A DNA stretch of 64,000 bases from Candidatus Omnitrophota bacterium. GTDB taxonomy: Bacteria > Omnitrophota > Gorgyraeia > Gygaellales > JAQTUX01. Shown here in pieces: positions 3,001-59,397 of this stretch; position 1 is the stretch's first letter; every line of letters begins with the position of its first letter. The notes beneath the pieces were generated by a model that saw only the letters and a program-made list of their open reading frames with translations, was not told where the DNA came from and did no database searches. Location: contig JAQTUX010000001.1 of NCBI GenBank assembly GCA_028707125.1, forward strand, positions 269,639 through 333,638, written 5' to 3'. A program made the position numbers and the translations under genes.

Positions 3001-6000
3001 GCACTGCCACTCCTTCCCAGCTCCTGGACGTCAACGGCATTGCTAATGTGAACACGCTCTCCATAGGCGATACCACCGTTACATCCACTGCGGCAGAATT
3101 GAACATATTAGACGGCGTAACAGCCACCGCAACCGAGCTCAACTATGTTGACGGCGTAACATCAGCCATACAAACACAGCTGAACGCCAAGGTAGGTACA
3201 GCCACTTCATTCTCAGGAGACGTGACCGGCGCCTACAACGCCACAGTTGTCGGCAACGACTCCCACGACCACACCGCCTCAACCATCTCAGGGTTAGGCG
3301 TCTCTGACTTCACTTCAGCCGCCATCTCCCAGTGGACCAATGACTCCAACTTCATCACCGCTGCCTCTACCATCACTGGACTGATCCAGTCCACAGCCGC
3401 AGGCACAAGTTACATCACAGGCGGGGATGTAGGCATCGGGACTGCAGTGCCGGGAGAGAAACTTCATGTTTACAAAGAAAGTTTAACTGATAATAGTCAG
3501 GCAAAATTACTCAAGTTAGAAGGGAAGTTTAATGATGCTAGCATAGATAGCGATGATGTAATAGGAATTTCAGTAAAGGCGGTTAACTCTAGTGGGGGAT
3601 CCGGAGAGAATATGATTATTGGTGGCTCATGGGGAGGATCAGCGGTCAATACTTTATTAGCAGTAGATGGCGGCAACGTCGGCATCGGGACGACGGTGCC
3701 CGCGGCGAAATTGCATGTCTCGGCCCCGGCGGTTATTGCCGGCGGGTTTTATTCGGTCGCGGCAAATGACGCTGACGCGGATATCTGGGGTATTTCAACG
3801 ACCTATTATCCATCTCATGGAACAGCAGCCAACCAGTGGGGTATCAAGTGGCAGTCCACGCCGAACGCATTCTCTTTTGTGGGGAATGGCAGCGAGAAAT
3901 TAAACATCGATGTGGATACGGCAGGGCATATTTCGATGGTCGTGAACGGCGGCAACGTCGGCATCGGCTCAGCCGTGCCAGTTGCGAAACTTGATGTTGT
4001 CGGGACTGCCGAAGTGGACGGCCTCTCCATAGGCGGTACAGCAGTCACTCCCACCGCGGCTGAACTCAACTACGTTGACGGCGTAACCTCTGCCATACAG
4101 ACACAGCTTGACGCCAAGGTAGGCACAGCCACTTCGTTCTCAGGCGACGTGACCGGCGCCTACAACGCCACAGTTGTCGGCAACGACTCCCACGACCACA
4201 CTACCTCTACCATATCAGGGCTGGGTGTTGCTGACTTCTCCTCAGCCAACATCTCCCAGTGGACCAATGACTCCGGATATTTCAATACCAGTAACGACGG
4301 CGCAGGCAGCGGTTTGGACGCGGATATGGTGGATGGGTTGCATCCTACGCAATTCTTCAACGCCCACGGTCAGAATCACGGCACATATACGGACTTCAAT
4401 ACGCCTACAGATTTTGGATTTAGATACATTGTGGGTACCACAAACGGCCCTGGCATAGCCGGCGCAAGCCAATACTATAATCTTGGCATAGGGTTAGGTA
4501 ATGATTATGCCTATACAAGTTACGCTATGCAACTGGCGATTCCGAGAAACTTAAGCACTCCATATATATCTGTGAGATATAGAGAGAATGGAGCTTGGGG
4601 GTCGTGGTATAAGATTTATGCCGGATATGCTGATACCGCGGCCGCGCTTTCCAGCATGAACATCAGTCAGTTTACCAATAATTCCGGTTACTTTAATACT
4701 AGTAATGACGGCGCGGGAAGCGGCCTGGATGCTGACCTGCTGGACGGCCAAAGCAGCGCTTATTATATGACTGCCGCAACCGACAATTGGGTGAATACGA
4801 CCGGGGACACGATGAGCGGGAATCTGTATTTCAATAATTATGGGCTGGGAGTCATCGGCACCTATAGTGATATAAGATATCAGGGCGTATTTGCCATGGG
4901 CGATGCTTATAAGCTCGCTCTGGACGGTACGACATCAGGGACTTTATATGGCATTGCCTGGACCCATAGCAATATCGGAGGCCAATCCAAGGCGGGGTTA
5001 AGTCATCAGGCATTGTTTATGACAAATGGCGTGACTCAGACAGCAATAGGAACGGGTATATGGACGCTTGGCGGCTATACGCAAAGCGGGACAAGCACGA
5101 ATGCTTTTATGGGCAGCGTCGGCATCGGCACAGTGGCGCCGGGAGCGAAGCTGCATGTGACAAGCGCCAATACCGGAGCAGGGTTGTTGAGGTTGGATAA
5201 TACCGGTGGTTCAGCCGGGGATGTAAACGGGGTAGATTTTTATCATAATAACGGAACGTATTTACAGGCGTTTATACGCGATGAGATTCTGAGCAGCTGG
5301 CCCACGAAATTACATTTCGGCGTTGCCTCAACGAGCAACAACGCCGCGACAAAGATGACCATACAGGGGTCAAACGGCTACGTGGGCATCGGCACAGTGA
5401 GCCCGGCGGCGCATCTTCAGGTCGGCACAGGCACTCCCGGCTCTGCCACAGGCGCGGGCGACCTGTATGTGGCAAGCGACCTCGAGGTTGATTCCACCGC
5501 CTATCTTGACCTGGACGCGCGGGTAGGCCGCGACTTTATCGGCACAGCCGCCACTTCGTATATGTATATGACCGGCACGCTCACGGTTGACCTGGACAAC
5601 GACAACAATGGTACGGACAAGTTTTCTATAAGGGACGGCGGCAATACCGAGATATTCTACGTGAATGAAGATAACGGAGGCGGAGGCAATGTTGTGGCAA
5701 AGGGAGTCACCGAAGGCTCATACATAGGGTTATTCAAGGGCTTGGGTTCGCTTCCGGGCTACGGCTCCAGCCGTTATCCGACGCTGAAGACGGATTACTC
5801 CTACTTGTATTTCTCCGTTGCCGGCGCGTACTCCGCGTATATGGGCTCTAACGGCGTCCTGACCGCCCAATCCAGCCGCGAGAAGAAGGAGAACTTTAAG
5901 GAGCTTGACTTTGATAATGTCCTGGCAAAGATTGATAAAATGCCGGTTATGGAGTGGAACTACAAGAACGAAGAAGATTCCATAAAGCACATCGGCCCGT

Positions 6001-6179
6001 TTGCCGAGGATTTCCACGCGCTTTTCGGACTGAACGGCACCGATAATACAATGATCGGCCACAGCGACCCTCCGGGCGTTGCCCTCGCCGGCGTAAAAGG
6101 GCTGTATAGGAAGGTGAAGGAGCAGGAGAGGGTGATTGAAGAGCTGGAGACAAGGATAGCGGCGTTGGAGAAGAAGTAA
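3..6179 (+). CDS. Giant Gly/Thr/Ser/Ala-rich fibre-like surface protein (5'-partial; frame open to window start), C-terminal intramolecular chaperone / peptidase S74-like auto-processing domain
   Basis: Single >2000-aa ORF with no stop back to nt 3. Recurring motifs GGWTD(A/S)GT, NVGIGT(A/T)xP, AAELN(F/Y)VDGVTSAIQTQLDAKVGT. C-terminal SSREKKENFKELDFDNVLAKIDKMPVMEWNYK...HIGPFAEDFHALFGL plus coiled-coil tail is typical of tail-fibre/endosialidase C-terminal chaperone domains. Confidence 0.75.
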   Translation, partial: ELFTDDPGLSGAIGGGAATQESSGIYPPGQGWNTNGSQATVTMYTTGTYASTAPQNRSYKVQIDTAGNTFSWWYMDDTTNWTNTVGGSAVAMSTNSAGTDLNAGVKVYFSAASGTANDSWYFSASNGTAYGGYDSYAQTAAYTAGETRIYKDGDPFSPYYNKMVFQSGATKVTLDQLAGTVATNATIYNPAIVGANSGGLTMYSSGSYTGSESRAYQVKISSQGVAGTSSDKFQFKYGVNDWGPVGGTSITGSQQSLGDGIFISFSESNYTNDGTITGGSSSNPDQWSFNVVAGSTSTSAGGWTDSGTDVYSSAVTDNVAIGTTVPGGYKLNVSGTANATTLTEGTNAVPNATDHLGFFAATTSAQLAGVLSDETGSGGVAVFATSPTIATPIISTSATVPLVIGGSATTSDLSLQTTSAAGEAGADMHFLVGNNGQTEAMTILNSGYVGIGSTVPTAALDINGNIQVSGTITGTVATAGGWTDAGTSMYPTNVDDNVAIGTTDPGSYDLNVAGTANMGTLSIGGTAVTASATELNFVDGVTSAIQTQLDSKSAASDTLTGLVQSTAAGTSYITGGSVGIGTTSPQYLLDVDKSATGNYIAHIKNSGTASYGLFIEAGTDTGDYIVSVASKTGSNKFVIRGDGNVGIGTVAPTALLDVNGTANVNTLSIGDTTITPTAAELNFVDGVTSAIQTQLDAKVGTSTAFIGDVTGAYNATVVGNDSHDHTASTISGLGVSDFTSAAISQWTNDSNFITAASTITGLIQSTAAGTSYITGGSVGIGTAVPGGKLDIYADQSTEYALVARNTADANQITHAFDASAGNALFRLWDVNGGLNVNLAASGNSYLNGGNVGIGTAVPGSALEVQGNVTLNDRLIMSGDSIGATVDTAYNTIKGAIGPTINGLTLTGALVDSNFSDDNANITNVYGLKIATAVTGQYTTTNAYGLYVDQPTGATNNYGAYINGNLIVSGTITGTVAAAGGWTDAGTSLYNTELTDKVGIGTATPSQLLDVNGIANVNTLSIGDTTVTSTAAELNILDGVTATATELNYVDGVTSAIQTQLNAKVGTATSFSGDVTGAYNATVVGNDSHDHTASTISGLGVSDFTSAAISQWTNDSNFITAASTITGLIQSTAAGTSYITGGDVGIGTAVPGEKLHVYKESLTDNSQAKLLKLEGKFNDASIDSDDVIGISVKAVNSSGGSGENMIIGGSWGGSAVNTLLAVDGGNVGIGTTVPAAKLHVSAPAVIAGGFYSVAANDADADIWGISTTYYPSHGTAANQWGIKWQSTPNAFSFVGNGSEKLNIDVDTAGHISMVVNGGNVGIGSAVPVAKLDVVGTAEVDGLSIGGTAVTPTAAELNYVDGVTSAIQTQLDAKVGTATSFSGDVTGAYNATVVGNDSHDHTTSTISGLGVADFSSANISQWTNDSGYFNTSNDGAGSGLDADMVDGLHPTQFFNAHGQNHGTYTDFNTPTDFGFRYIVGTTNGPGIAGASQYYNLGIGLGNDYAYTSYAMQLAIPRNLSTPYISVRYRENGAWGSWYKIYAGYADTAAALSSMNISQFTNNSGYFNTSNDGAGSGLDADLLDGQSSAYYMTAATDNWVNTTGDTMSGNLYFNNYGLGVIGTYSDIRYQGVFAMGDAYKLALDGTTSGTLYGIAWTHSNIGGQSKAGLSHQALFMTNGVTQTAIGTGIWTLGGYTQSGTSTNAFMGSVGIGTVAPGAKLHVTSANTGAGLLRLDNTGGSAGDVNGVDFYHNNGTYLQAFIRDEILSSWPTKLHFGVASTSNNAATKMTIQGSNGYVGIGTVSPAAHLQVGTGTPGSATGAGDLYVASDLEVDSTAYLDLDARVGRDFIGTAATSYMYMTGTLTVDLDNDNNGTDKFSIRDGGNTEIFYVNEDNGGGGNVVAKGVTEGSYIGLFKGLGSLPGYGSSRYPTLKTDYSYLYFSVAGAYSAYMGSNGVLTAQSSREKKENFKELDFDNVLAKIDKMPVMEWNYKNEEDSIKHIGPFAEDFHALFGLNGTDNTMIGHSDPPGVALAGVKGLYRKVKEQERVIEELETRIAALEKK
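2030..2345 (+). repeat. Intragenic long repeat copy A (~300 bp, near-identical to copies at ~3125-3440 and ~4050-4270; shorter relative at ~1595-1665)
   Basis: Long DNA stretches re-occur almost verbatim, e.g. caccggcgcctacaacgccacagttgtcggcaacgactcccacgaccaca...cccagtggaccaatgactccaacttcatcacc. Encodes the repeated AAELNFVDGVTSAIQTQLDAKVGT...SHDHTASTISGLGVSDFTSAAISQWTNDSNFITAASTITGLIQSTAAGTSYITGG module. Confidence 0.8.
3125..3440 (+). repeat. Intragenic long repeat copy B
   Basis: Same module as 2030-2345 with a few substitutions. Confidence 0.8.
4050..4270 (+). repeat. Intragenic long repeat copy C (shorter)
   Basis: AAELNYVDGVTSAIQTQLDAKVGTATSFSGDVTGAYNATVVGNDSHDHTTSTISGLGVADFSSANISQWTNDS at protein level; DNA near-identical to copy B. 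Confidence 0.75.
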
Positions 6180-6932: not shown

Positions 6933-7709
6933 ATGTCCGGTTATTTTCTGAGGCTAATCAAGGCGCGGCATATTCTGCGAAGCATGGTCCTGAAGAACTT
7001 GAAGGACAAATATGTCGGCTCAACACTGGGTATCTTCTGGGCGGTGATAAACCCCCTGTTGATCATGTCGGCCGTATCCTTTGTTTTCACTCAGGTGATG
7101 CAAACCCCGATACGGCGCTACCCGCTGCTGGTATTAAGCGCCTACCTTCCCTGGAATTTCTTCGTTAACTCCGCCACTGAAAGCGCCGCCTGCATAAGGC
7201 AGAATCAAGGCATACTCTCTCAATACACCATCCCCCGCGAGGCCATACCCGTATCAGTCGCGCTCGCCGATTTCCTGAACTTTTTATTCGGATTCGCGGC
7301 GATGCTGCCGATATTCATCTTCATGAACAGGGGGGCCGCGGGATGCCTGTGGCTGCTGCCTTTGGTAATGGCCCTGCATCTGGCATTCACCGTCGGGATC
7401 TCCTTATTGTTCAGCATCATCAATATATATTTCAGGGATTTTTCCCAGCTCCTGGGAGTGGGAATGCTGTTCTGGTTCTGGGTCACGCCGGTCTTCTACA
7501 CCCTGGAGATGATGCCTGCCGGCCTTCGCGGGGCATTCCTGGCCAACCCCGCCACATGCTATACGGTTATTTACAGGGAATTATTATATAACGGCCGCTG
7601 CGGCGGCATATCCATGTGGGTATTGGCCGTTATCTTCGCTTTGGCGAGTTTGGCGGGTGGATACATCTTATTTGCCGCCAAAGAAAAGGATATCCTCAAG
7701 CATATTTAG
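6933..7709 (+). CDS. ABC-2 type polysaccharide/glycan export permease (Wzm/TagG-like)
   Basis: 258 aa, 6 predicted TM helices, ABC-2 permease signature region. Stop immediately followed by the ATPase gene start. Confidence 0.75.
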   Translation: MSGYFLRLIKARHILRSMVLKNLKDKYVGSTLGIFWAVINPLLIMSAVSFVFTQVMQTPIRRYPLLVLSAYLPWNFFVNSATESAACIRQNQGILSQYTIPREAIPVSVALADFLNFLFGFAAMLPIFIFMNRGAAGCLWLLPLVMALHLAFTVGISLLFSIINIYFRDFSQLLGVGMLFWFWVTPVFYTLEMMPAGLRGAFLANPATCYTVIYRELLYNGRCGGISMWVLAVIFALASLAGGYILFAAKEKDILKHI

Positions 7710-10421
7710 ATGATAACGCTGGAAGACGTTTGGCTGAAATACAGGATAGCGTTCAAGGAAGGCGCGAGGGCCGTTTGCGAGGATTTCTGGGCGCTTAAGG
7801 GCATAGACCTGAATGTCGGCAAGGGAGAGTGTTTCGCGGTCATCGGAGAGAACGGCTCAGGCAAGACCACGCTCCTGAGGGTGATCAGCGGCATGCTAAT
7901 GCCTGACAAGGGCAGGGTGCGCCTGGGAGGAAGGGTCGCCGGGCTTATGGAGATACAGGCCGGTTTCCATCCTGAACTGACCGGCAGGGAGAATATCTAC
8001 AATATCTCGGCGCTTTCAGGCCTGAGCGCCGATGAGACAGGCGCCTGTTACGCGGACATGGTTGAGTTTGCCGCCATCGGCAGGTTCATCAACGCCCCGG
8101 TAAAGACATACTCCCAGGGCATGCTTGTGCGCCTTGCCTTTGCCATAGCCATACACGCGCGCACCGACATATTGCTGGTTGACGACATATTCGCGGTAGG
8201 CGATATTTATGCCCGGCGCAAGTGCATTAATAAGATGTTTGAGCTGAAGGATAAGGGCCTGACCATTATTTTTGTTTCTCATGACCTGGATATTGCCAGG
8301 CGGCTGTGTAAAAGAGGCGTGCTGCTCAGGGAAGGCAGGGTTATCAGGGCCGGTTCAATAGACGGACTCGTCAGTTATTATCTTGAGACGGTAGGCAATA
8401 AGGAAGGTATAGCCCTGCTGCAAAAAGGGCGGCTGGCAATTATTTTTAATAACGGCAAGCTGATCATCAGGTGGAACGACTCCGCTCTTACCAAGGGCGC
8501 GGCCGGGCATACGGTGATGAGCTCTTCGGGCAGGACATATCAGTCAGATACCGCCTCCTGGATTATCCGGCAGCCGGCGGCAGCCGATGAGATCGTTGCC
8601 GTAGGCAGGTGGCCGGATATGCCGGCTGAGCTTATCTGGAAGATACGCTGCCGCGGCGAAAAGGAATTCAGCTGGGATGTAACTCTGCAGGCGCGCGCAC
8701 AGGCCCGGATAGAGGATTACACGGCCAGATTGATCCTGACCGACGAATACGAGGGCTGGTTTACATCGCAGGAGGAATACGTTTTTCCGGAGGCGTTCCT
8801 GCATGAGAACGAATGGCAGAGCCGCCGGATAGACGATCATCTTAACTGGCTGATAGGGTTAAAGACGGGAGCCGATAGCGGCGAAGGCCTGCCAACGCTT
8901 GTTTTAGACAGCTCAGGCGCGGATAAACAGGGCGCCTGCCAGATCGGCAATACCGGCATTGAGGCCTCTGCCAGAGGTATTCAGTTCAATTACGTTAATC
9001 CGGAACCAGAGCATGCCGCGGGCAGCTATAAGTTTTTTTCAACCGGCGTGAAGTTATTTGAGGAGCGGGACAGGCAGGATTTTGAATGTTATATGGCGCG
9101 GGCAAGGCAGGCCGGCAGGCGCAGGATCATCAGCCGCGGCCCGCTCGCCCTGTGTTGCGGGCAGCGCAAAATAGAGATTTTCCTGCGGGATGCGCTTTTA
9201 AGCAGCGGCGCGGGGCTGGATACGAAATTCATCTGGCAGGGCCGTACCTACAGCGCCGCCGGAGGTAACTGGTCCGTAGAAAAAGAAGGAGATAATTATC
9301 TTGTAGTTAATATCTTTTGGGGGCCCGAAGCGCCTTTTTTCCAGGTATGGAGAATGGAACTGCGGGATGAGTCCGCCATTTTCTGGCAGGCGGATATGGA
9401 AATAAGAGATGGGCTGGAGATCAGGAACAGGCAGGTTGAGCTTTTTCTCAGCGGCCGATATGACAGGTGGTTTACGCCTTCGGAAAACGGCGACTTTGGG
9501 GCAGTGGAAAAAAAAGGCAACACAGTCATACTAAGTAAATACATAAACGATTTTTCCGGCGTAGAACAGTCCTGCCTTATGCCGGCGGTTACCTTCGCCA
9601 ATCAAGACGGCCGCGCCAGAGTGTCGTATATTTCCCGGGGCCAGGACAAGGAATTAAATACGAAGCTGCATTATCTGGAGATAGATCCCGCCGCTGACGC
9701 GGCGCTTGAAGCAGGCAGGCACGCCTTTTTTAAGGGGGCCATAAGGATAGCGCCCAGGCAGGGACAAAAAGGCGTTGACGCGGTTGTCAATAATAACGGC
9801 GCGGCCGCGGCGATAAATTTTAACGGCGTTTCTCTGGATTTCAGGCACGGCAGGATGCGTCTTTTCTATGAAGGCGTTGAATTGACAAAAGGGCTGGGCC
9901 TTTACTCTGCGGTTTTGCATGAAGGCAACTGGCATGATTCTTCGCAGGGACTATGGAAGGTCGAGGCCTCGGACAGGGAAAGGTTCGTCGCCGTGGGCCG
10001 CTGGCCGTGGCTGCCTGTCAGGCAGGAATGGGAAGTAACGCTATTGGATGGCCGCGATATCATCTGGCGCATAACCAGGGATACCCGGGACGGCTTTGAT
10101 CCCGACAAGGAGCAGGTTAACCTGATGCTGTCGGATAATTACCGGGAGTGGTTTGTCCGGGAAAGGGCGCGGGGAAGGTTTCCCGAAGAGTTTGCCGAGC
10201 ATACCCGCGGCGGGTTCTGGGAGCGGTTATGGTCGGCGGCAGCGCAGTCGCCGGTCGGCGCCAAAGGGCCTGGGCTGCCGTCTGTCCTCCTGGACTGTTC
10301 AGAGAGCCCGGTTCCCGGCCGCCTGTGCATTGAGAACACGGACGCGTTATTCAAGGCCAGGGTCCTGCAGTGCGAATCGGCGCAGCAAAAACATTTTAGC
10401 GGAAAGATAAAGATATGCTGA
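7710..10421 (+). CDS. ABC transporter ATP-binding protein (Wzt/TagH-like) with ~650-aa C-terminal extension of repeated Trp-rich beta domains
   Basis: Walker A GENGSGKTTLLRVISG, signature-like YSQGMLVRLAFA, Walker B ILLVDD. C-terminal 650 aa carry three related ~110-aa units, e.g. VAVGRWPDMPAELIWKIRCRGEKEFSWDVTLQ...YEGWFT / FWGPEAPFFQVWRMELRDESAIFWQADMEIRD...YDRWFT / VAVGRWPWLPVRQEWEVTLLDGRDIIWRITRD...YREWFV. Confidence 0.8.
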   Translation: MITLEDVWLKYRIAFKEGARAVCEDFWALKGIDLNVGKGECFAVIGENGSGKTTLLRVISGMLMPDKGRVRLGGRVAGLMEIQAGFHPELTGRENIYNISALSGLSADETGACYADMVEFAAIGRFINAPVKTYSQGMLVRLAFAIAIHARTDILLVDDIFAVGDIYARRKCINKMFELKDKGLTIIFVSHDLDIARRLCKRGVLLREGRVIRAGSIDGLVSYYLETVGNKEGIALLQKGRLAIIFNNGKLIIRWNDSALTKGAAGHTVMSSSGRTYQSDTASWIIRQPAAADEIVAVGRWPDMPAELIWKIRCRGEKEFSWDVTLQARAQARIEDYTARLILTDEYEGWFTSQEEYVFPEAFLHENEWQSRRIDDHLNWLIGLKTGADSGEGLPTLVLDSSGADKQGACQIGNTGIEASARGIQFNYVNPEPEHAAGSYKFFSTGVKLFEERDRQDFECYMARARQAGRRRIISRGPLALCCGQRKIEIFLRDALLSSGAGLDTKFIWQGRTYSAAGGNWSVEKEGDNYLVVNIFWGPEAPFFQVWRMELRDESAIFWQADMEIRDGLEIRNRQVELFLSGRYDRWFTPSENGDFGAVEKKGNTVILSKYINDFSGVEQSCLMPAVTFANQDGRARVSYISRGQDKELNTKLHYLEIDPAADAALEAGRHAFFKGAIRIAPRQGQKGVDAVVNNNGAAAAINFNGVSLDFRHGRMRLFYEGVELTKGLGLYSAVLHEGNWHDSSQGLWKVEASDRERFVAVGRWPWLPVRQEWEVTLLDGRDIIWRITRDTRDGFDPDKEQVNLMLSDNYREWFVRERARGRFPEEFAEHTRGGFWERLWSAAAQSPVGAKGPGLPSVLLDCSESPVPGRLCIENTDALFKARVLQCESAQQKHFSGKIKIC

Positions 10422-13400
10422 AGGGCCTTTTATTTAATAACAGGAACAGGCGCGCGATAGAACGCGCCGGCATAAAAATAGATATTGATGAAGAGCGCCG
10501 CTTCAGGATCTACCATAACGGCAGCGAGCTCAGCAAGCTGCAGGGCATGCGCGTCTGTTTGTTTTCAGAGGGCAGATGGCACTATTTTCCCGCCAAAGAC
10601 AGTATCTTGAAGATAAGCAGGCCCGATGAAACCAGTTTTAGTTTGCGGCTTTACAATAGAACGCTGCCTGTTGTCCTGCATTGGGGAATGGAGCTGGGTG
10701 AGGGCAGCCGGTTGAAATGGAGCGTGGAATTAGAGCTAAAGGGGCCCATACGGCTGGATGCCGTGAAGGCCGTAGTGCTCCTCAGCCGTTCCTATAAAAG
10801 CTGGTTCTCTTATTCCGGCGCTAAAGAGGGCCTGTTCGCTGATAGCGCCGGAGAATTCCGGCAGGAGATCGGTATTGCCGATTCTGATTTTTTAAGCATT
10901 GGCGCGGACAGGCCGGAAATTGCCACGCTGCTGTTAAGGGCGGTTGATTCGCCTTTAAATGTTTCTTTGTGTAACACGGATGATCTGTCTTCCTCGCGTG
11001 AAGTTGATCTCTGCTGCAACGGGCAGAAGGAATTTTATGCCCCCGGCAGGCACTCTTGTTTTCAGGCGGTTATTGAACTCTGCGGGGATAAGTCCGCAGT
11101 AGAAAATATCATTCAGGATGTAAAAGGCAGAAAGAGGCGCGAAGAAGAAGAGGCGCTGCGTAAAAAGGAAGAGGAGCGCCTGGCGGAAGAAGAACAGCGC
11201 CGGCTAGAGGAAGAACGCCTGCGCCAGGAGGAACAAAGGCGCCTGGAAGAAGAGCGCCGAAAACAGGAAGAGCTCAAGCGCCTGGAAGAAGAGCGCCTGA
11301 GAATTGAGCGCGCGCGGGACCGGCAGCGGCGCACGCTTGAGGCGGGTGATTTCAGGATTTATTTTGACTACAATAACCGTTTCCATTTCTACCACAGGAA
11401 TGAGGAGTTTACCAAGGCGCATGGCCTGCATACGGGTATATTTTCAGAGGGCCGCTGGTATGGTTCGGCGGATTCAGAGGCCGCTATAGAGAATAGTGAG
11501 CCGGGTAGATTAAGGATCAATTTCAGGCACAGACATCTGCCCGTTATTCAATCCTGGGACCTGCGGTTAGATTCCGCGGGAGTAATCAGGTGGAGCGTTG
11601 ATATGCGGCTTGAGCAGCCGTTAAGGATAGAGCGCAGGAACGCCTGCCTGTTTTTGTCCCGCGCCTATGACAGGTGGCTTGCGCCTCCGGACGCGGGGGC
11701 GTTCCCCGCGGCATTCGGCCTGCAATGGCAGATGGCCAGCCCTTCGGAGAGCAGGCCGGGCTTTATAGGGCTGACGTCCGGGATGAAGCAGCTGCCGGGC
11801 ATAACATTAAAGGGCTCCGAAGACGGCGGCCGCCTGGCTGTTCATAACGCGGATATGGATGTCTCATCCCGCGTCCTTGAGGAGCGTTTTGAAGAGCGCG
11901 TAGAGTTTTACAAGGCAGGCGATTACTCTTTCTCGCGGGCGGTCATCCGGCTTTATAATGATAACGCGGCCATCGAGGGCGCGTTCAAAGAGGCGGAAGA
12001 AAAAGAGAACGCGCTCAGAGAGTTGCGCAAAGAGCGGCTGAGGCGCGCCGCCGGGCTAAGGCAGGGGAGAAAAGAATTTGAGGGGCTGCGCCTGCGCCCC
12101 GCGGCCTCGCGCGTCGTTATTTACGGCGATTCCCAGGGCCTGCACGATAAGATCAGCGGCGAGGCAGGCGGTTTTAACAGGGCCGTAGCGTGCATTAAGG
12201 CAGAAAGCGGCACAGCCGCGGTAGGTATCTCACGGTTTAATTTCTTCAAGATCCATGAGGTCGTCCAGTTCATCTCTACTTTGAGGAACGCGCGGATCGA
12301 TACGCGCCCTGTCTGCCTGCCGCTGTTTCCGGCAAGCGGTATTTACTCCAGTTTTCTTAATTACATAAAGGAGATCAAATCTCTCGTCGCAGGAAAGGGC
12401 ATCGAACTTTTCTTAAAAGACGTTGATCTGCTCAAACTCCTGCAGGCTGTGTCTTCGCAGTCCAATAGAGATAACGAGAGGGACCTGCTGCGGCTTCTGG
12501 GGCTGATAGCCGAGCATCCCTTTATCGGGCCGCAGACGCTGGTCCTCGACACAACGCATAAATGCAATACAAACTGCGCCCATTGCTGGATACACAACCC
12601 CCGCAGCAAGACGCCCCCCGCCGTGCTCGAATCAAAGATGGACGACCGCCTGTACAGGAAGATCATTGACGACGCGGCAGCCATTTTGAGCGACGAGGTC
12701 ATAATACAGGGCGACGGAGAGCCGCTTCTGGACGACCGCTTTATCGAGATGGCGCGTTACGCCAGGGACAAGGGGTTAAAGGTCCTGTTCTTTACCAACG
12801 GCATACTCCTGGATGAGGCGACGGCTAAATGCCTGATAGACCTGGAGGTCAATGAGATATTCTGCAGCCTGCCCGCCGGGACCGACCTGACCTACAGCTG
12901 GATAAATTCGCGGCAGTCAAAAGACACCTTCCACAGGATCGTCGGCAATCTGAAAAACCTGATCTCCCTGAGGAACGGCTCGGGCAGGCCCCTGCCGCTT
13001 TTGCAGATGACCCACGTGATACACAATATGAATTGCCATGAGATCGAGCAGATGTCCGCTGTTGACGCGGACATAGGCGCGGACAGGGCACGCTTCTACC
13101 TGGCCCGCCTTGACGAGAACATCGCGCATTTAAAGATACTATCTTCACAGGTAGAGGCGCTAAAGGCATCCCTGCGGAAGGCCGCCGCGTTGCTTAAAGA
13201 AAGCAAAATAGACCTGCAGGACAATATTTTTTTCCAGCTGGACAATTATCAGCCGGAGACCGGTTACTGGTCGCAGGGCCGTTTTCTTGAAACGGGCTGC
13301 CCGGTGGGGTGGTTTTTCGCGCTGATATTGGCTGGAGGAGAATTGAGCATGTGCTGCCATATGCGGGTGGTCGGGCGCCTGGGGGAAAGATCGCTGAGGG

Positions 13401-13588
13401 AGGCGTGGAATTCCCGGGAATACAACGATTACAGGGTCAAGGCCAAACATATGCGGGACAATATGGACGCGCGTTTCTCAAACGGCGTCAAGCTTTACGA
13501 TGATTTCTGCAATCATTGCGATACGCATCAGGTGATCTTAAGGATAAACGGCCTGCTGGAGCGATACGGGCTGAAGAAATTCTTATAA
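10415..13588 (+). CDS. Multidomain radical SAM/SPASM protein: Trp-rich domain - ER/K-rich single alpha-helix - Trp-rich domain - linker - radical SAM core - Cys-rich C-terminal (SPASM-like) domain
   Basis: CX3CX2C motif in LVLDTTHKCNTNCAHCWIHNP. C-terminal cysteines GCPVGW...MCCHM...FCNHCDTH. Two N-terminal domains (RWHYFP...LHWGMELGEGSRLKWSVELEL...YKSWFS; RWYGSA...QSWDLRLDSAGVIRWSVDMRL...YDRWLA) resemble the ABC ATPase tail repeats. Charged stretch EEEALRKKEEERLAEEEQRRLEEERLRQEEQRRLEEERRKQEELKRLEEERLRIERARDRQRR. Confidence 0.8.
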   Translation: MLKGLLFNNRNRRAIERAGIKIDIDEERRFRIYHNGSELSKLQGMRVCLFSEGRWHYFPAKDSILKISRPDETSFSLRLYNRTLPVVLHWGMELGEGSRLKWSVELELKGPIRLDAVKAVVLLSRSYKSWFSYSGAKEGLFADSAGEFRQEIGIADSDFLSIGADRPEIATLLLRAVDSPLNVSLCNTDDLSSSREVDLCCNGQKEFYAPGRHSCFQAVIELCGDKSAVENIIQDVKGRKRREEEEALRKKEEERLAEEEQRRLEEERLRQEEQRRLEEERRKQEELKRLEEERLRIERARDRQRRTLEAGDFRIYFDYNNRFHFYHRNEEFTKAHGLHTGIFSEGRWYGSADSEAAIENSEPGRLRINFRHRHLPVIQSWDLRLDSAGVIRWSVDMRLEQPLRIERRNACLFLSRAYDRWLAPPDAGAFPAAFGLQWQMASPSESRPGFIGLTSGMKQLPGITLKGSEDGGRLAVHNADMDVSSRVLEERFEERVEFYKAGDYSFSRAVIRLYNDNAAIEGAFKEAEEKENALRELRKERLRRAAGLRQGRKEFEGLRLRPAASRVVIYGDSQGLHDKISGEAGGFNRAVACIKAESGTAAVGISRFNFFKIHEVVQFISTLRNARIDTRPVCLPLFPASGIYSSFLNYIKEIKSLVAGKGIELFLKDVDLLKLLQAVSSQSNRDNERDLLRLLGLIAEHPFIGPQTLVLDTTHKCNTNCAHCWIHNPRSKTPPAVLESKMDDRLYRKIIDDAAAILSDEVIIQGDGEPLLDDRFIEMARYARDKGLKVLFFTNGILLDEATAKCLIDLEVNEIFCSLPAGTDLTYSWINSRQSKDTFHRIVGNLKNLISLRNGSGRPLPLLQMTHVIHNMNCHEIEQMSAVDADIGADRARFYLARLDENIAHLKILSSQVEALKASLRKAAALLKESKIDLQDNIFFQLDNYQPETGYWSQGRFLETGCPVGWFFALILAGGELSMCCHMRVVGRLGERSLREAWNSREYNDYRVKAKHMRDNMDARFSNGVKLYDDFCNHCDTHQVILRINGLLERYGLKKFL
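11140..11310 (+). repeat. 39-nt tandem coding repeats (x3-4) encoding the ER/K-rich helix
   Basis: gaagaacagcgccggctagaggaagaacgcctgcgccag / gaggaacaaaggcgcctggaagaagagcgccgaaaacag / gaagagctcaagcgcctggaagaagagcgcctgagaatt (11189-11305), preceded by a degenerate copy. Confidence 0.7.
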
Positions 13589-13593
13589 AAGAT

Positions 13594-15798
13594 ATGAAGA
13601 TATCATTGGTAAATCTGCCCTGGAGGAGTTTTGGCAGGGAGGGGGTGAGGGCTGGTTCCCGCTGGCCGCATTTGAAGGCCCGCTCGGAGAAAGAATATCT
13701 GCCTTTCCCCTTTTTTCTCGCCTACGCGGCGGCGCTGCTTAAAAAGAACGGATTTAACGCGCGGCTCATTGACGCCATCGCCAGCGGCCTGTCTTACAGG
13801 CGGTTTTCGCGCCGGATGCGCTCCAGCCGCCCCGACATCCTGGTCTGCGAGACGTCCACGGTGACCCTCAAGCATGACTTGCGGGTCCTGAAGGGCCTGG
13901 GGAGCAAGGCGGAGATCATCCTTTGCGGCCCGGATGTCAATATCCGCCGGCCGGATTTTCTCAGGGAGAACGGATTTATAAAATATGTGCTGTCCGGAGA
14001 ATATGAATTTACGCTCCTTGAACTGCTGCAGCATCTTGATGAGGGCCGCGGCCTTGATGAGGTAAAGGGGATCATATACCGCTCTAACGGCGGCGTGAAG
14101 ATCAATCCCGCGCGGCCCCTGGTTGACCTGGACCGCCTGCCCTGGCCTCTGCGCGAAGGCCTGCCGATGTCGCGTTACAACGATGCCCCGGGAGACATAC
14201 CCATACCGTCGGTGCAGATGATGGCCTCACGCGGCTGCCCGTTTCGCTGCAAGTTCTGCCTCTGGCCGCAGGTGATGTATCAGGGCAGCCATTACAGGGC
14301 CAGGAGCGTCGTGGACGTCGTTGATGAAATGGAATACCTGGTCAGGAATTCGGGATACAGGTCGGTCTATTTTGACGACGATACCTTTAACTGCGGCAAA
14401 GAAAGGATGCTCGGCCTCTGCGCTGAGATCAAGAAGAGGGGCCTGAATATCTTCTGGGCGATAATGGCAAGGGCCGACCTGATGGATGAGGAGATCCTGG
14501 TGAATATGAAAGAGGCGGGGTTGTTTGCCGTCAAATACGGCGTGGAATCCGCCGATAACTCCCTGTTGGACAATATCAATAAGGGTATGTCGCTTGAAAA
14601 AACAGAGGCCGTCATCAAGATGACCAGGGCGCTGGGCATCAAGACCCACCTGACCTTTACCCTGGGCCTTCCGGGAGAGACCAGGCAGACCATAAAAAAG
14701 ACGGTTGATTTCGCCTTAAAGGCCGATCCGGAATCGCTTCAGTTTTCCCTGGCTACGCCGTTTCCGGGAACGGAGTTCTACAGGGAGATGAAGGAGAACG
14801 GCCGGATAATCTCCGCTGATTGGGCAAGATACGATGGAAGCCGCAGCAGCGCGCTCGCCTATGACGATCTCTCCGCGGGCGAGCTTGAGCGCGCCATGAG
14901 GTCGGCTTACAGGCGGTGGGCAATGCACCGTTTGAAAAGGGCCCGTTTTGACCGATTGGGGCTAAAGGCGTATTGCCGCTATTCCCTTGTCAATTCAATA
15001 AATAGCAACGGAATTGTCATGACCGCTTATAAGGTTTCGCGGTTTGCTTTCAGGTACGCGCTTATGCACGTGAGGGAGGCGTTGGTGTCCTCGCCCCGTA
15101 AGATTGAAAACATCGCGCGGGAAAAGGGGTTGAAACTGGGAAGGATGTCCCTGGTCCCGGACGGCCGCGGCCTGAGTTTGTTCTGGGGCGGCCTCAAGTT
15201 GACCCGCGGACGCGGATTTTACAGCTTTCTAAATTTTGAAGGCGCGGATAACGGCAGCGACGGCGCGCTTAAATGGGACACGCAGAGGCCGGACGCGGGC
15301 AGCATTATATTGAGGCGCCTGTATGACGGCGCCGGCATTGAGGAGATATGGAAGATAACCGCGCTGGATGAAAAGCAGATCGGCTGGGACGTGGATATTG
15401 AAATAAAAAAAGAGACGGGTGTGCGGCAGGAAGATATCGGCCTGGCGCTTACGCGCAAATACCGCAAGTGGATAGAAGAATGGGGCGAGGGCAGGTTTCC
15501 CCCTTTGAACGATTACCGCGAAGTTGAGCTCAGGAACGCGCGCAGCGCCGTTGTCGGCGTAAGGGGCAGGAGGGCATTGAGGAATACTCTGCCCACGGTC
15601 CTGCTTGACCTGTCCGCCGGCAATAACGGTTTTCTCCCGTCGGTAGGGAACTCGGCAGAAGGGCATCACGGCCGCCTGCTCGGGGTCAGGCTCGCGCGAG
15701 GGGCCCGCGTCCGCAGATACGCCGCCGGAAGGCACAGGTTGTTGTCGGCCAGGATAAAGATAGTGGAAGAGGATTTCGCGAAGGGCGGGCGAAGATGA
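13594..15798 (+). CDS. B12-binding (class B) radical SAM protein with C-terminal Trp-rich domain
   Basis: N-terminal Rossmann-like B12-binding region (ISLVNLPW..., LIDAIASG, ILVCETS). Radical SAM MASRGCPFRCKFCLWP. C-terminal IWKITALDEKQIGWDVDIEIKKETGVRQEDIGLALTRKYRKWIEEW matches the Trp-rich domain. Start moved to the Met at 13594, just after the upstream stop (ORF track begins at 13516). Confidence 0.8.
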   Translation: MKISLVNLPWRSFGREGVRAGSRWPHLKARSEKEYLPFPFFLAYAAALLKKNGFNARLIDAIASGLSYRRFSRRMRSSRPDILVCETSTVTLKHDLRVLKGLGSKAEIILCGPDVNIRRPDFLRENGFIKYVLSGEYEFTLLELLQHLDEGRGLDEVKGIIYRSNGGVKINPARPLVDLDRLPWPLREGLPMSRYNDAPGDIPIPSVQMMASRGCPFRCKFCLWPQVMYQGSHYRARSVVDVVDEMEYLVRNSGYRSVYFDDDTFNCGKERMLGLCAEIKKRGLNIFWAIMARADLMDEEILVNMKEAGLFAVKYGVESADNSLLDNINKGMSLEKTEAVIKMTRALGIKTHLTFTLGLPGETRQTIKKTVDFALKADPESLQFSLATPFPGTEFYREMKENGRIISADWARYDGSRSSALAYDDLSAGELERAMRSAYRRWAMHRLKRARFDRLGLKAYCRYSLVNSINSNGIVMTAYKVSRFAFRYALMHVREALVSSPRKIENIAREKGLKLGRMSLVPDGRGLSLFWGGLKLTRGRGFYSFLNFEGADNGSDGALKWDTQRPDAGSIILRRLYDGAGIEEIWKITALDEKQIGWDVDIEIKKETGVRQEDIGLALTRKYRKWIEEWGEGRFPPLNDYREVELRNARSAVVGVRGRRALRNTLPTVLLDLSAGNNGFLPSVGNSAEGHHGRLLGVRLARGARVRRYAAGRHRLLSARIKIVEEDFAKGGRR

Positions 15799-17114
15799 AG
15801 AGCGGCTCACGCTGGGTGAAGTTCAGGGATAGGCTGAAAAACAGCGGCCTGAAGGATACGCTGAGGACGGCTATGCTGGAATTGAGGCCCGGGCGTTTTT
15901 TCGGGGATTATCTTGATGTGCTGGGGGTGCTGGACGGGCTGCACGCTTATAAAGGCCCGGAGTTCGCCCAGATAGACCTTACCAACGACTGTAATAATAA
16001 TTGTATCGGCTGCTGGTGCAATTCGCCGCTTCTCGGAGACAAAAGGATAAGGTCCGGTGATAAAAGGCGGACACTGTCCCTTAAAAGCGTGCTGAAACTT
16101 CTTGATGAGTTGTCCGCCATGGCCACGCGCCATATTTATTATGCCGGCGGCGGCGAACCGTTCATGCACCCCGATATTATGGAGATACTCAGATACACAA
16201 AGCGGAAAGGGTTTGTCTGTTACGTAAATACCAATTTTACCCTGCTTGACGAAGAGAAGATAAGGAAGATCGTAGATTTGAAGGTTGATCATCTGACCGT
16301 GAGTGTCTGGGCGGCAACGCCTGAGGCCTACTGCTTCACGCACCCCAACAAGGAGGGGGCGGATTTTCTGAGGATAAAGGAGATGCTTTCGCTGCTTAAC
16401 CGGATCAAGCGCGGATACCCGGTAGTCAAACTATACAATGTGATCTTCAATATGAATTACCATGAGCTTTCCGCCATGGTGGATCTTGCCGCGGACACGA
16501 ATTCAGAGGCGGTTGAATTCACGGTCATCGATACCATCCCCGGCAGGACGGATAAGTTGTTGTTGAACCCCCAAGAGCGCAGCGCGTTGTTGGAGGAATG
16601 CAGGAAGATTGAACAGCGCAGCGCGAACGCGCATCTTCGGCCGCGGCCGCAGATAATGAATTTGCGGCAGTTCGCGCGCCGGATCGAAAACGCGGCCTCC
16701 TCAAGCGCCGAATATGATTCAGATGTGATCGGCAGCATGCCTTGCTACGCCGGATGGGCGTTCACGAGGATACTGGCCGACGGCAGCGTGAATTCCTGCC
16801 TGAAATCCCACCGTTTCCCCGTGGGCAATATCCGCCAGGAGAGCTTCAAGAAGATATGGAACGACAGGCGCCAGAGGTATTTCAGAAGGAAGGCCTACCA
16901 TCTGGATAGATCGGACCCCTTTTTCAAGATCATAGGCAACGACCCTGATTCGGCAATGGGCTGCTATAAAAGCTGCGATAATCTCGGACATAACATGGAG
17001 ATGCACGGCAAGATGTCCGCTTTGAGCGCCCGCCAAAGAAGATGGCTTGAACGCGCGGCAGGGATCATGAAGTCAGGGCGCAGATATTACTACGGAATGG
17101 CCGGAGGTAAATAA
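15795..17114 (+). CDS. Radical SAM protein with Cys-rich C-terminal (twitch/SPASM-like) region
   Basis: IDLTNDCNNNCIGCWC (CX3CX2C); GGGEPFMHPD. C-terminal cysteines MPCYAGW...NSCLKSH...GCYKSCDN. Confidence 0.75.
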   Translation: MKSGSRWVKFRDRLKNSGLKDTLRTAMLELRPGRFFGDYLDVLGVLDGLHAYKGPEFAQIDLTNDCNNNCIGCWCNSPLLGDKRIRSGDKRRTLSLKSVLKLLDELSAMATRHIYYAGGGEPFMHPDIMEILRYTKRKGFVCYVNTNFTLLDEEKIRKIVDLKVDHLTVSVWAATPEAYCFTHPNKEGADFLRIKEMLSLLNRIKRGYPVVKLYNVIFNMNYHELSAMVDLAADTNSEAVEFTVIDTIPGRTDKLLLNPQERSALLEECRKIEQRSANAHLRPRPQIMNLRQFARRIENAASSSAEYDSDVIGSMPCYAGWAFTRILADGSVNSCLKSHRFPVGNIRQESFKKIWNDRRQRYFRRKAYHLDRSDPFFKIIGNDPDSAMGCYKSCDNLGHNMEMHGKMSALSARQRRWLERAAGIMKSGRRYYYGMAGGK

Positions 17115-18169: not shown

Positions 18170-19176
18170 TCGTGAAGCCGAAATTCTGCTGCGTGGCGGC
18201 TACGGATTACTGTATGCTGCGCTGTAAAATGTGCAATAAATGGCAGGAGAGGTCCCCCCGGCCCGACGAGGTCCCTTCCCTGGATGAGTGGAAGAACTTT
18301 ATCGCCGCTTTCAGGGAGCTGGTGGACGAGGGTTTTGAGATGGATTTCGGCGGCGGCGAGGCGTTGTCGCTGCCGGGCATCCTGGAACTTGTAAAATTCG
18401 CCAAGGGCAGGGGCTTCCGTACCACCCTTGCCTCCAATGGCTATCTTATAGATAAAGAGATGTCCAGAAGGATAGCCGACTCCGGCCTTGATGCGGTCAG
18501 CCTGTCTCTGGACAGCCCTTATCCTGAAGTCCACGATAAGATGCGCGGCGTAGAAGGTGTTTATCAGCGCGTAATGGCCGCGCTGGATAATCTCTCTTTA
18601 TATTCCCCTTCAACCAGAAAGGGCCTTTGCTGCATAATTATGAATGAAAATATGGACAGTTTGATACGGCTGGCTGATATGGCTGATAAAGACCCCCGCG
18701 TTGACTGGCTTTATTTTATGTCGGTGGTCCAGCCCAATTACAGCGGCCCGCTGGACAGCGCCTGGCGCGATGAATACAGCTATCTTTGGCCGCGGGATAC
18801 CAGGCGGCTGCAAGACATAATAGATGAGTTGATACGCAGGAAGGCTGACGGCTCAAAGGTGAGCAACCGGCCCGAGCACCTGCGCGCCTACAAGGCCTAT
18901 TTCGCCGACCCAAAGACGTTTGTGAACAAGGCGAAGTGTATCGTGGGCGGGGCGGCGATAAGTGTGAATACCTACGGCTTCATTCAGCTTTGTTTTTTCA
19001 TGGATTTTATCGGCAACATCAGGAAGGATGATATCCGCAAACTCTGGTATTCTCAGGGCGCGGAGTCGGTAAGAGGCAAGGTAGGCGCCTGCAAGGCCAA
19101 TTGCCATCTGCTTCTTAATTGCTGTTATATAGAAGACGATCCCGAGTTATATTCCGTAAATAATGAAAGCCGTTAG
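18166..19176 (+). CDS. Small MoaA/twitch-like radical SAM paralog 2
   Basis: PKFCCVAATDYCMLRCKMCNKW; GGGEALSLP; ASNGYLIDKEMSRRIADSGL; C-terminal CKANCHLLLNC. Confidence 0.8.
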   Translation: MIVKPKFCCVAATDYCMLRCKMCNKWQERSPRPDEVPSLDEWKNFIAAFRELVDEGFEMDFGGGEALSLPGILELVKFAKGRGFRTTLASNGYLIDKEMSRRIADSGLDAVSLSLDSPYPEVHDKMRGVEGVYQRVMAALDNLSLYSPSTRKGLCCIIMNENMDSLIRLADMADKDPRVDWLYFMSVVQPNYSGPLDSAWRDEYSYLWPRDTRRLQDIIDELIRRKADGSKVSNRPEHLRAYKAYFADPKTFVNKAKCIVGGAAISVNTYGFIQLCFFMDFIGNIRKDDIRKLWYSQGAESVRGKVGACKANCHLLLNCCYIEDDPELYSVNNESR

Positions 19177-20449
19177 ATTCTGGCTTGTGTCGCTATTTGC
19201 CGCCGCCGTATTGCTGGAGGCGGTATTAAGGGTTTCCGGGTCCGCGTATGCCGGGGCTCATTGGTTGAGGCAGGGCCTGTCAAGAGGCAGCCAGGGCAGG
19301 CCTTTTACCGTACTTTGCCTTGGTGATTCTTTTACCTTCGGCGTAGGCGCCGCCGCCAAAGACAGCTATCCGGCGCAATTGCAGCGGATGCTGCAGGGCA
19401 ACGGAGAGAAAGGATTCCTGATAATTAACGGCGGACGGCTGGCGAATACTTCTTCTCTGCTCCTGGAAAATCTGCGCTCCGACCTGGATACTTACAGGCC
19501 GGACTTGCTGGTGATCATGGTCGGCTGTAATAATTATTGGAATCTCCGCGGCAGCAGCTATTTCCATCTCAAGGGCGAAGGCGCGGGATTCCGGCAGAAA
19601 CTGGACAGCGTAATGAGCAACCTGCGTTTCTACCAGGCATGTAAGATAGGTTATTTGAATCTGAAGTCAAGATTGAATAACCGGCGCAGGCAGCCGGATA
19701 TTGCCGGCGTCCCCGATATGAAGGCGCGGCGGATAGACCCTGACGCTGACCGGCTGGTGGTGGAAGCGCAGAAGCTATACGAAACAGGCGAGTACGCGCT
19801 TTCAAGAGAAAAGTTGGACGAGGCGCTGGCGAGGGACGAATTCAGCCACCGCGCCCATTTCTTGTCGGCCATGCTGCTGAATATAGAAGGCAATGATACG
19901 GCGGCAAGGGATGAGCTCTGGCGGTCTCTTCAGGCGGCCAGGGAAACCGGCGAATGGGACGGCGGTTTCTTTTGCAATATTATTAATATTTGTTTACGGA
20001 TTGAGAAAGACATCCCCGCGCAGCGAAGGCAGTTGTCAAAGATGAGGGAGTTCGCGGCGCTGCACGCGCCGCCCGATAAGAAACAGGATATCCTTTCGCT
20101 CTTGGACGCGAAGGCAGGGCTGTTGGATGATAATAGCGATATGTATGAGGTCGCGAGGTTTGATATCGGACGGGTCGCCGGCCTGGCAAGGCAGCGTGGC
20201 TGCGCGGTCATACTCCAGACATACCCGGCAAAAAGCGATCTGAATTCAATGTTAAGACGGGTGAGCAAAGAATACGGCCTTGTTCTGGCAGATAATGAAT
20301 TATTCTTTGAAGAGAGAGGCAGAGAAGGCCCGTTAGGGGATCTTTTCGTGGCTGACGGCCACTGTTCAGCTGCCGGGTATAATTTGATCGCCGCAAACGT
20401 CTACGCGGCATTAGCCGATAATGGCTATATCAAAAATGCGAAAAGATAA
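19163..20449 (+). CDS. Membrane-anchored SGNH/GDSL-family hydrolase with inserted TPR-like helical domain (paralog 1)
   Basis: N-terminal TM helix. Block I LCLGDSFTFGVGAA; block III LLVIMVGCNNYWN; block V FVADGHCSAAGY. Central helical region with TPR-like periodicity. Confidence 0.7.
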   Translation: MKAVRFWLVSLFAAAVLLEAVLRVSGSAYAGAHWLRQGLSRGSQGRPFTVLCLGDSFTFGVGAAAKDSYPAQLQRMLQGNGEKGFLIINGGRLANTSSLLLENLRSDLDTYRPDLLVIMVGCNNYWNLRGSSYFHLKGEGAGFRQKLDSVMSNLRFYQACKIGYLNLKSRLNNRRRQPDIAGVPDMKARRIDPDADRLVVEAQKLYETGEYALSREKLDEALARDEFSHRAHFLSAMLLNIEGNDTAARDELWRSLQAARETGEWDGGFFCNIINICLRIEKDIPAQRRQLSKMREFAALHAPPDKKQDILSLLDAKAGLLDDNSDMYEVARFDIGRVAGLARQRGCAVILQTYPAKSDLNSMLRRVSKEYGLVLADNELFFEERGREGPLGDLFVADGHCSAAGYNLIAANVYAALADNGYIKNAKR

Positions 20450-44177: not shown

Positions 44178-44179
44178 CA

Positions 44180-46561: not shown

Positions 46562-46567
46562 GTCGAT

Positions 46568-49492: not shown

Positions 49493-49494
49493 CG

Positions 49495-50121: not shown

Positions 50122-50134
50122 TAATCAACACATT

Positions 50135-53067: not shown

Positions 53068-53085
53068 GGGCCCGACAGGACTAAC

Positions 53086-54105: not shown

Positions 54106-54153
54106 AAGTCCTTATGCTTCAGTTATCCGTAACCGGCAGCGTTGTTTGATTAA

Positions 54154-58497: not shown

Positions 58498-58515
58498 AAC
58501 AAAGGGAACATCCGG

Positions 58516-59382: not shown

Positions 59383-59397
59383 TTTAAGGGTGGGGTT

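Follow-up and report, generated by a model that had tools for sequence, protein, structure and literature searches.

Within the stretch of DNA analysed here (64,000 nucleotides of a contig from a Candidatus Omnitrophota bacterium, called the window below), four tightly packed genes on the + strand encode an ABC-2 type permease, an ATP-binding cassette (ABC) ATPase, a radical S-adenosylmethionine (SAM) enzyme with a SPASM domain (rSAM-SPASM) and a B12-binding radical SAM enzyme (B12-rSAM). The gap between the permease and ATPase genes is 0 nucleotides (nt). Pfam leaves much of the last three proteins blank, namely about 680 residues of the ATPase, residues 1-700 of the rSAM-SPASM protein and residues ~450-734 of the B12-rSAM protein. 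The sole Pfam match in the ATPase is ABC_tran, at residues 29-160. The subject of this work is a domain that is repeated within these blank regions.

Six units in three adjacent genes

BLASTP and hmmsearch find six mutually similar units across the three genes, in a 3+2+1 arrangement (ATPase, rSAM-SPASM, B12-rSAM). Pairs of units are 21-30% identical and score 30-102 bits in BLASTP, and the aligned stretch is mostly about 200 residues or longer. Controls with shuffled sequences score 14-15 +/- 2-3 bits with a maximum of 24.6. The real scores set against them are 61-69 bits for three ABC-to-enzyme pairs and 34 bits for the B12-rSAM unit with the first rSAM-SPASM unit; these controls cover four unit pairs, and the lowest pairwise scores (30-32 bits) lie outside that set. 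A hidden Markov model (HMM) built from the three ABC units only recovers all three enzyme-borne units, with E-values from 1e-11 to 7e-21 when scaled to 1.84e9 sequences (Table 1). Homology between the ABC and enzyme units is secure by these sequence comparisons, which place all six units in one domain family that lacks annotation. The whole window, including the other radical SAM genes and the GT-C glycosyltransferase gene, was scanned in six frames and gave no seventh copy.

The original prediction, made from the DNA sequence and its open reading frames (ORFs), had the copy number and location of the shared domain right. It put the unit at about 110 amino acids (aa), which is a two-fold underestimate. 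The unit is ~215-235 aa long (about 225), and three of them account for the 679-aa tail of the ATPase (residues 225-903). The shorter unit was rejected because the alignments, HMM envelopes and structural models all describe a single continuous ~225-aa domain, of which the 110 aa are the best-conserved N-terminal half. The tryptophan motif that was proposed for the unit is real in that W86, W98, L119, Y123, W126 and F135 of the six-unit alignment (A1) are invariant and form its conserved core. The pattern as written does less well: its strict regular expression fits 2 units and a relaxed version 5. Tryptophan makes up 1.7-4.2% of the units versus 0.9% of the nucleotide-binding domain (NBD).

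The closest solved relative of the ATPase in a PDB search is Aquifex aeolicus Wzt (8dku/7k2t, E 4e-61), followed by TarH (5e-46) and TagH (4e-39). Query residues 20-240 align with chain residues 29-252, which is the NBD plus the hinge helix, and unit 1 begins at 225-226. The alignment ends where the linker and carbohydrate-binding domain (CBD) of the Aquifex protein begin (domain ranges from PMC9445017). The best NCBIfam matches of the ATPase are TagH and Wzt/RfbE, under their equivalog cut-offs. The permease has a weak likeness to the galactan Wzm/RfbD and KpsM models, also under their cut-offs. Genes for glycan assembly lie on the same strand at 42984-57464 (GT4 x2, GT2 x2, Bac_transf, Wzy_C-TPR and PMT_2; GT stands for glycosyltransferase). 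By the likeness of the NBD and the presence of these glycan genes, the ATPase and the upstream PF01061 permease are a glycan ABC exporter of the Wzm/Wzt-TagGH type (type V). The window also holds about 25 radical SAM genes (10415-42000 and 52144-62890), some 21 of them consecutive on the + strand. It is an ABC-transporter-dependent glycan-assembly cluster with an extraordinary radical SAM complement.

Table 1. Coordinates of the exporter and radical SAM genes and of the units they carry
Feature	Position	Strand	Evidence or remark
ABC-2 type permease (Wzm-like)	6933..7709	+	PF01061 ABC2_membrane, E 1e-10
ABC ATPase, 903 aa	7710-10421	+	NBD + three units
ATPase NBD (residues 1-224), Wzt/TagH-like	7710..8381	+	PF00005 at residues 29-160
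ABC tail unit 1 (residues 225-455), first-position class	8382..9074	+	BLASTP/hmmsearch
ABC tail unit 2 (residues 456-690), middle class	9075..9779	+	hmmsearch alignment 462-690
ABC tail unit 3 (residues 691-903), last-position class, reaches C-terminus	9780..10418	+	hmmsearch alignment 691-903
rSAM-SPASM protein, 1057 aa	10415-13588	+	7-nt overlap with ABC gene
rSAM-SPASM unit 1 (residues 1-235)	10415..11119	+	hmmsearch; ABC-only HMM E 1e-11
Glu/Arg/Lys-rich linker between rSAM-SPASM units (~residues 236-300)	11120..11314	+	translation RKRREEEEALRKKEEERLAEEEQRRLEEERLRQEEQRRLEEERRKQEELKRLEEERLRIERARDRQRR
rSAM-SPASM unit 2 (residues 301-530)	11315..12004	+	hmmsearch; ABC-only HMM E 7e-21
Radical SAM core (residues 713-849) and SPASM (962-1013) of rSAM-SPASM protein	12551..13453	+	PF04055 E 2.6e-12; PF13186 E 3.8e-7
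B12-rSAM protein, 734 aa	13594-15798	+	B12-binding + radical SAM + C-terminal unit
B12-rSAM catalytic part (residues 1-500), HpnJ/BchE-like	13594..15093	+	PF02310 at 40-143; PF04055 at 212-374
B12-rSAM C-terminal unit (residues 501-734)	15094..15795	+	ABC-only HMM E 3e-17

The best NCBIfam match of the B12-rSAM catalytic part is HpnJ (272 bits, under the 577-bit cut-off), with BchE also near. HpnJ has been linked to the ring contraction of an amino sugar carried by a hopanoid, and the likeness would fit a sugar substrate. Between the two rSAM-SPASM units, the charged Glu/Arg/Lys repeat is probably a spacer that forms a single alpha helix of the ER/K type. ER/K-rich leaders also stand ahead of units in the family proteins P0120, P0135, P0136, P0138 and P0145.

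Fold and distribution of the unit

AlphaFold2 gives confident models of ABC unit 1 (pLDDT 84.2) and the B12-rSAM unit (pLDDT 82.6), each with a pTM of 0.84. Both are all-beta, with about 19 strands in the same order, and the predicted fold is a galactose-mutarotase-like beta-supersandwich. The best structural matches include aldose-1-epimerases and domains of the glycoside hydrolase (GH) families GH174, GH38 and GH97 and of polysaccharide lyases (PL). Further matches are to accessory domains of GH36 and GH2, glycoside phosphorylases (GP), OpgG/D, the P1 domain of YidC and the NDH subunit PnsB2. Foldseek agrees. Sequence identity to the matches is 3-13%. The original prediction had made a relationship to carbohydrate-binding folds a point to check, and this fold does occur overwhelmingly in carbohydrate-active proteins.

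Sequence searches place the unit nowhere. In Pfam-A, four isolated units have no match even at E<=10, and that includes the galactose-mutarotase clan and PF14524. The NCBIfam matches leave the units uncovered. Against PDB chains the A1 profile has no sequence match save a chance one at E 1.7. The unit thus belongs with the galactose-mutarotase-like supersandwiches at the level of fold and lies outside any described sequence family. The known domains of this fold (aldose-1-epimerases; accessory domains of GH38, GH97, GH36, GH2, GH94, GH174 and PL8-like lyases; OpgG/OpgD; YidC P1) differ from it in more than sequence. No histidine or acid is conserved above 60% in the sequence columns of the units, and a tandem arrangement on an NBD and on radical SAM enzymes is unseen among the matches.

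The most conserved positions over 369 units are F, P, T, Y, W, W, W, G, R, N, Q, S and W (69-92%). In the HMM, residues kept throughout the family include T at column 37, W at 52, 60, 85 and 125, Q at 83, Y at 122, F at 134, P at 165, N at 182 and R at 190. Histidine is not among the conserved columns, and the best acids reach 56% (D) and 58% (E), as counted in sequence columns only. Sugar-binding sites use aromatic plus polar residues. The conservation pattern would fit a binding site, unlike a mutarotase-type active site.

It is worth comparing the unit with the Wzt CBD, as known from the Wzt proteins of E. coli O9a, Raoultella terrigena and Aquifex aeolicus, since the two hold the same place. 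Wzt-type exporters are the textbook transporters that check their polymer with a C-terminal binding domain. To our knowledge, the characterised binding domains of such exporters are of one type only, the jelly-roll. The O-antigen cap is what the Wzt CBD recognises, the domain functions in trans as well, and the characterised domains dimerise by C-terminal strand exchange (PMC9445017). Like the CBD, the units sit right after the NBD hinge of a Wzt-like ATPase with an ABC-2 permease in a glycan cluster, and the role that we propose for them is also the same, namely that a lipid-linked polymer is recognised before export (PMC9445017). The likeness ends there. A ~225-aa supersandwich stands in place of a strand-exchanging jelly-roll dimer, and the Wzt CBD is absent from every structural match list. 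There are three units in tandem here (2-7 across ABC fusions) instead of one domain, and the 679-aa tail far exceeds in size the one CBD present in the Aquifex Wzt chain of 404 residues. The unit is also found on radical SAM enzymes, GT-C transferases and a sulfatase. On these points the original prediction held for the Wzt-type ATPase and its outsized extension, and failed for the relationship to Wzt_C that it had raised. Membership in Wzt_C (PF14524) was rejected because the full ATPase has no match at E<=0.01, the units have none at E<=10, and the fold differs. Since both sequence and fold are unlike those of the Wzt CBD, this is a different domain in an equivalent place. A tandem array from an unannotated family with the fold of sugar enzymes fills the CBD position, and the same family is grafted onto radical SAM enzymes.

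The family is not confined to this window. HMMER, run exhaustively against 1.84 billion representative proteins, gave 637 family members at E<=1e-3 and 274 at E<=1e-30, with 1-8 units each. A homologue search by word index with the six-unit alignment returned zero matches, which is a limit of its sensitivity given the HMMER result. Every family member with a named organism is from the Omnitrophota, and a contig search with the ABC tail as a single query found one locus, also in the Omnitrophota. This is a new domain family with 637 representatives that are blank in current annotation.

Architectures were counted in the best 150 of the 637 members. An ABC NBD followed by 2-7 units is found in 86 of them, about 16 are fusions to rSAM-SPASM or B12-rSAM enzymes, and about 40 have units only, many of these being fragments. 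A PMT_2 protein (GT-C, GT39-like) with 2-4 C-terminal units accounts for 6 that are confirmed by Pfam and 3 more that are alike; crude Kyte-Doolittle counts of transmembrane segments in these fusions are mutually inconsistent. One member is a sulfatase with 2 units and an N-terminal hydrophobic signal or anchor. With ABC, radical SAM, PMT_2 and sulfatase proteins as fusion partners, the module moves among proteins of glycoconjugate pathways, probably on both sides of the membrane. In P0008 and P0101, ABC_tran, units, Radical_SAM and SPASM all lie in a single polypeptide, and the P0101 cluster has three members from different sources. Whichever reading of the unit holds, these covalent fusions argue that at least the fused radical SAM enzyme would work at the transporter.

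A cassette is kept at related loci: a permease, an ABC ATPase with units, a radical SAM protein with N-terminal units, another with a C-terminal unit, and then a radical SAM battery. The ABC tails of these loci are 40% identical to the one in the window (L003/L004 and L002) or 22% (L005/L006). In L003/L004 both the gene order and the 3+2+1 distribution of units match the window. In L005/L006 the ATPase has four units, the next radical SAM protein has one at its N-terminus and a later radical SAM-like protein has one at its C-terminus; more radical SAM genes follow. ABC unit 2 is orthologous to the second unit of L002 and L003 (179-188 bits), and ABC unit 3 to the last unit of L002, L003 and L005 (101-182 bits). 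Position classes can be seen across the ABC tails: in comparisons between proteins, the first unit best matches a first unit in 72 of 79 cases and the last unit a last unit in 79 of 82. This suggests that the classes may have specialised roles; the first unit, for example, might contact the NBD and the last might mediate dimerisation.

Several details of these loci should be recorded. The unit-bearing rSAM-SPASM orthologue of L003 is one 1164-aa gene (12789-16283). L004, an almost identical contig of a different assembly, has two genes in its place, for a 503-aa protein of units only (12789-14300) and a 657-aa radical SAM protein (14309-16282). Either a frameshift or the assembly accounts for the difference, or the gene is naturally split, in which case the units can stand alone. 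L005 encodes a 1299-aa protein (10106-14005) with three Radical_SAM+SPASM modules in one chain, so a radical SAM battery can be fused as well as encoded in tandem. Just upstream of the permease there is a flavin amine-oxidase-like gene (PF01593/PF13450) in L003 (5655-9192 region) and in L005 (2224-3513), and L003 also has a carbamoyltransferase gene and an SxtJ-like gene. None of these three has a counterpart among the window ORFs that were put through Pfam.

What the unit may recognise

We argue that the units recognise glycan without catalysing, as a module that takes the place of the Wzt CBD and is also borne by tailoring enzymes, a reading to which we give somewhat better than even odds. 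It starts from what the analysis shows: the units are homologous, they have the supersandwich fold, they follow the NBD, their cassette is conserved and they are fused to the partners listed above. From this we infer a glycan ligand, a binding and not a catalytic role for the units, and an effect of binding on export, as a gate or as a promoter. The three tandem units would follow the NBD hinge as a functional stand-in for the jelly-roll CBD that characterised Wzt proteins have there, and would recognise the lipid-linked glycan made by the cluster. On the first two radical SAM enzymes the module would act as a recognition element does for radical SAM enzymes that modify ribosomally synthesised and post-translationally modified peptides (RiPPs). 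By retaining the polymer at the active site and the enzyme close to both substrate and exporter, it would couple the tailoring of one polymer to its export on the cytoplasmic face of the membrane. The GT-C and sulfatase fusions and the ABC-units-radical SAM polypeptides strengthen the apparent link between exporter, radical SAM enzymes and glycan pathway, and the whole suggests that Omnitrophota bacteria physically link the export of a surface polymer to its chemical tailoring. The comparison with the RiPP recognition element is a functional analogy only, in that both would be substrate-recruiting domains added to an rSAM-SPASM core. That element is of the winged-helix type, is small and takes a leader peptide as its ligand, whereas the unit is a large beta-sandwich of a carbohydrate-associated fold and is also on the exporter. 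In the literature searched we found no description of this architecture.

A number of observations weigh against glycan recognition. YidC P1, chloroplast NDH PnsB2 and a PBCV-1 capsid protein are among the structural matches, so the fold is not exclusive to sugar binding. Some or all of the conserved Trp, Tyr and Phe residues may be merely core or structural. SPASM-type radical SAM enzymes are best known as peptide or cofactor maturases, and this is what their NCBIfam matches are. Only the first two of the ~25 radical SAM genes carry the module; to have the whole battery act on the polysaccharide, as the original prediction did, is an extrapolation. Finally, the enzyme-borne units have no consistent affinity to one class of ABC unit, so there is no sign of a ligand specificity common to particular ABC and enzyme pairs. 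In the window the best pairs are ABC unit 1 with the B12-rSAM unit, unit 2 with the second rSAM-SPASM unit and unit 3 with the first, and this is partly so in L003 and L005. The idea of one-to-one cognate pairs was dropped because, across the family, enzyme units prefer no ABC position consistently.

The main rival is that the units are protein-protein docking or scaffold modules. Enzyme units would pair with ABC-tail units, or with each other, in a metabolon of radical SAM enzymes and transporter, and the substrate would not be touched. The module is common to a transporter and two adjacently encoded enzymes, and a radical SAM enzyme fused to an ABC tail, as in P0008 and P0101, is what docking would evolve into. 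Position-specific first and last classes are what fixed protein contacts would produce, with the NBD or possibly in a dimer, and in YidC P1 and PnsB2 the fold does have protein-contact uses that involve no sugar. However, a sulfatase with a signal or anchor and the GT-C fusions are hard to dock on a cytoplasmic NBD tail. The enzyme units also have no consistent partner class among the ABC units. The polar and aromatic residues are kept across all classes, which suggests a common small ligand over diverse protein partners. We consider docking unlikely as the explanation, and it must be noted that it is compatible with glycan binding.

It is less likely still that the units bind a part of the substrate that is not glycan, such as the polyprenyl-pyrophosphate carrier, another lipid or a peptide, with the radical SAM battery acting on an exported lipid or RiPP-like peptide. 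In its favour, SPASM enzymes typically mature peptides or cofactors, the B12-rSAM protein is nearest to HpnJ, to BchE and to families of lipid-modifying B12-rSAM enzymes, ABC-2 transporters also export lipids and peptides, and YidC P1 has the same fold and is not a sugar binder. However, the part of the hopanoid on which HpnJ acts is itself a sugar. Wzt and TagH are nearer to the NBD than exporters of peptides or lipids are, and the same strand run has GTs, a phosphoglycosyl transferase, Wzy_C and a GT-C enzyme. In other genomes the module is fused to glycan enzymes. We rejected the idea that the operon encodes a RiPP precursor, since its genes abut or overlap, leaving no intergenic gaps, and no conserved small ORF resembling a precursor was found in it; a 47-aa ORF in L003 has no counterpart in the window. 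Catalysis is the least plausible of the alternatives. The best structural matches are aldose-1-epimerases, GH174, GH38, GH97 and PL domains, and one might propose on this ground that the units themselves modify the sugar polymer, as mutarotase-, epimerase-, lyase- or hydrolase-like enzymes. Identity to these best matches is only 4-12%, and the clan gave no Pfam match at E<=10. In sequence columns no His, Glu or Asp is conserved above ~58% over the 369 units, and two to eight tandem copies per protein are typical of binding modules rather than of catalysts. In most of the GH, GP and PL matches this domain is itself accessory and not catalytic. We regard catalysis as very improbable.

Glycan recognition by the unit can be taken one step further, to an assembly line. 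An Omnitrophota-specific module would organise ~25 radical SAM enzymes that tailor a lipid-linked polysaccharide at the transporter, and export would follow only once the tandem modules recognise the finished modifications. We offer this tentatively, as possible but doubtful. If it were true, these would be the first substrate-recognition domains common to a polysaccharide exporter and radical SAM tailoring enzymes, and the cluster would carry out radical chemistry on a bacterial surface glycan to a very large and so far unexplored extent. Even if the assembly line is set aside, a module that binds glycan would be a direct handle on the heavily radical-SAM-modified surface polymer of the Omnitrophota, which are uncultured and partly host-dependent. 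It would also be sequence-based evidence that SPASM and B12 radical SAM enzymes work on polysaccharide. A substrate-recognition tail on a glycan ABC exporter is of a known kind. What is new is the module, its tandem array and its sharing with radical SAM enzymes.

The remainder of the window

Thirteen of the radical SAM genes are paralogues of ~330-390 aa that are 30-44% identical to each other, and 12 of the 13 have a SPASM domain. Further radical SAM genes encode fusions to a B12-binding domain or to TPR domains at the N-terminus (28478, 34348). Downstream, the order is GT4, Wzy_C-TPR, GT2, GT2, GT4, the Bac_transf phosphoglycosyl transferase and DUF362, and after these come four more radical SAM genes, a methyltransferase and the PMT_2 GT-C transferase. 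This PMT_2 gene (55728-57464) has no units, whereas its Omnitrophota homologues elsewhere carry 2-4 at the C-terminus, which implies that the module is exchanged among parts of what seems to be the same pathway. Four paralogous genes that combine a GDSL/SGNH hydrolase with TPR lie among the radical SAM genes and later in the window (19163-20449, 32047-33357, 41614-42825 and 59398-60798). Their products could transfer O-acyl groups on the polymer or act on it as esterases.

Just upstream of the exporter, positions 129-6179 encode a repetitive 2016-aa protein that is rich in Gly, Thr, Ser and Ala. It has long internal repeats and a C-terminal Peptidase_S74 domain ('chaperone of endosialidase'), and is like a tail fibre or surface fibre. 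Between this gene and the permease is a 132-aa protein of the 23S rRNA-intervening-sequence family (PF05635, 6257-6655). All substantial ORFs of the window are on the + strand. The GC skew is positive nearly throughout, and the cumulative skew climbs steadily from ~4 kb on.

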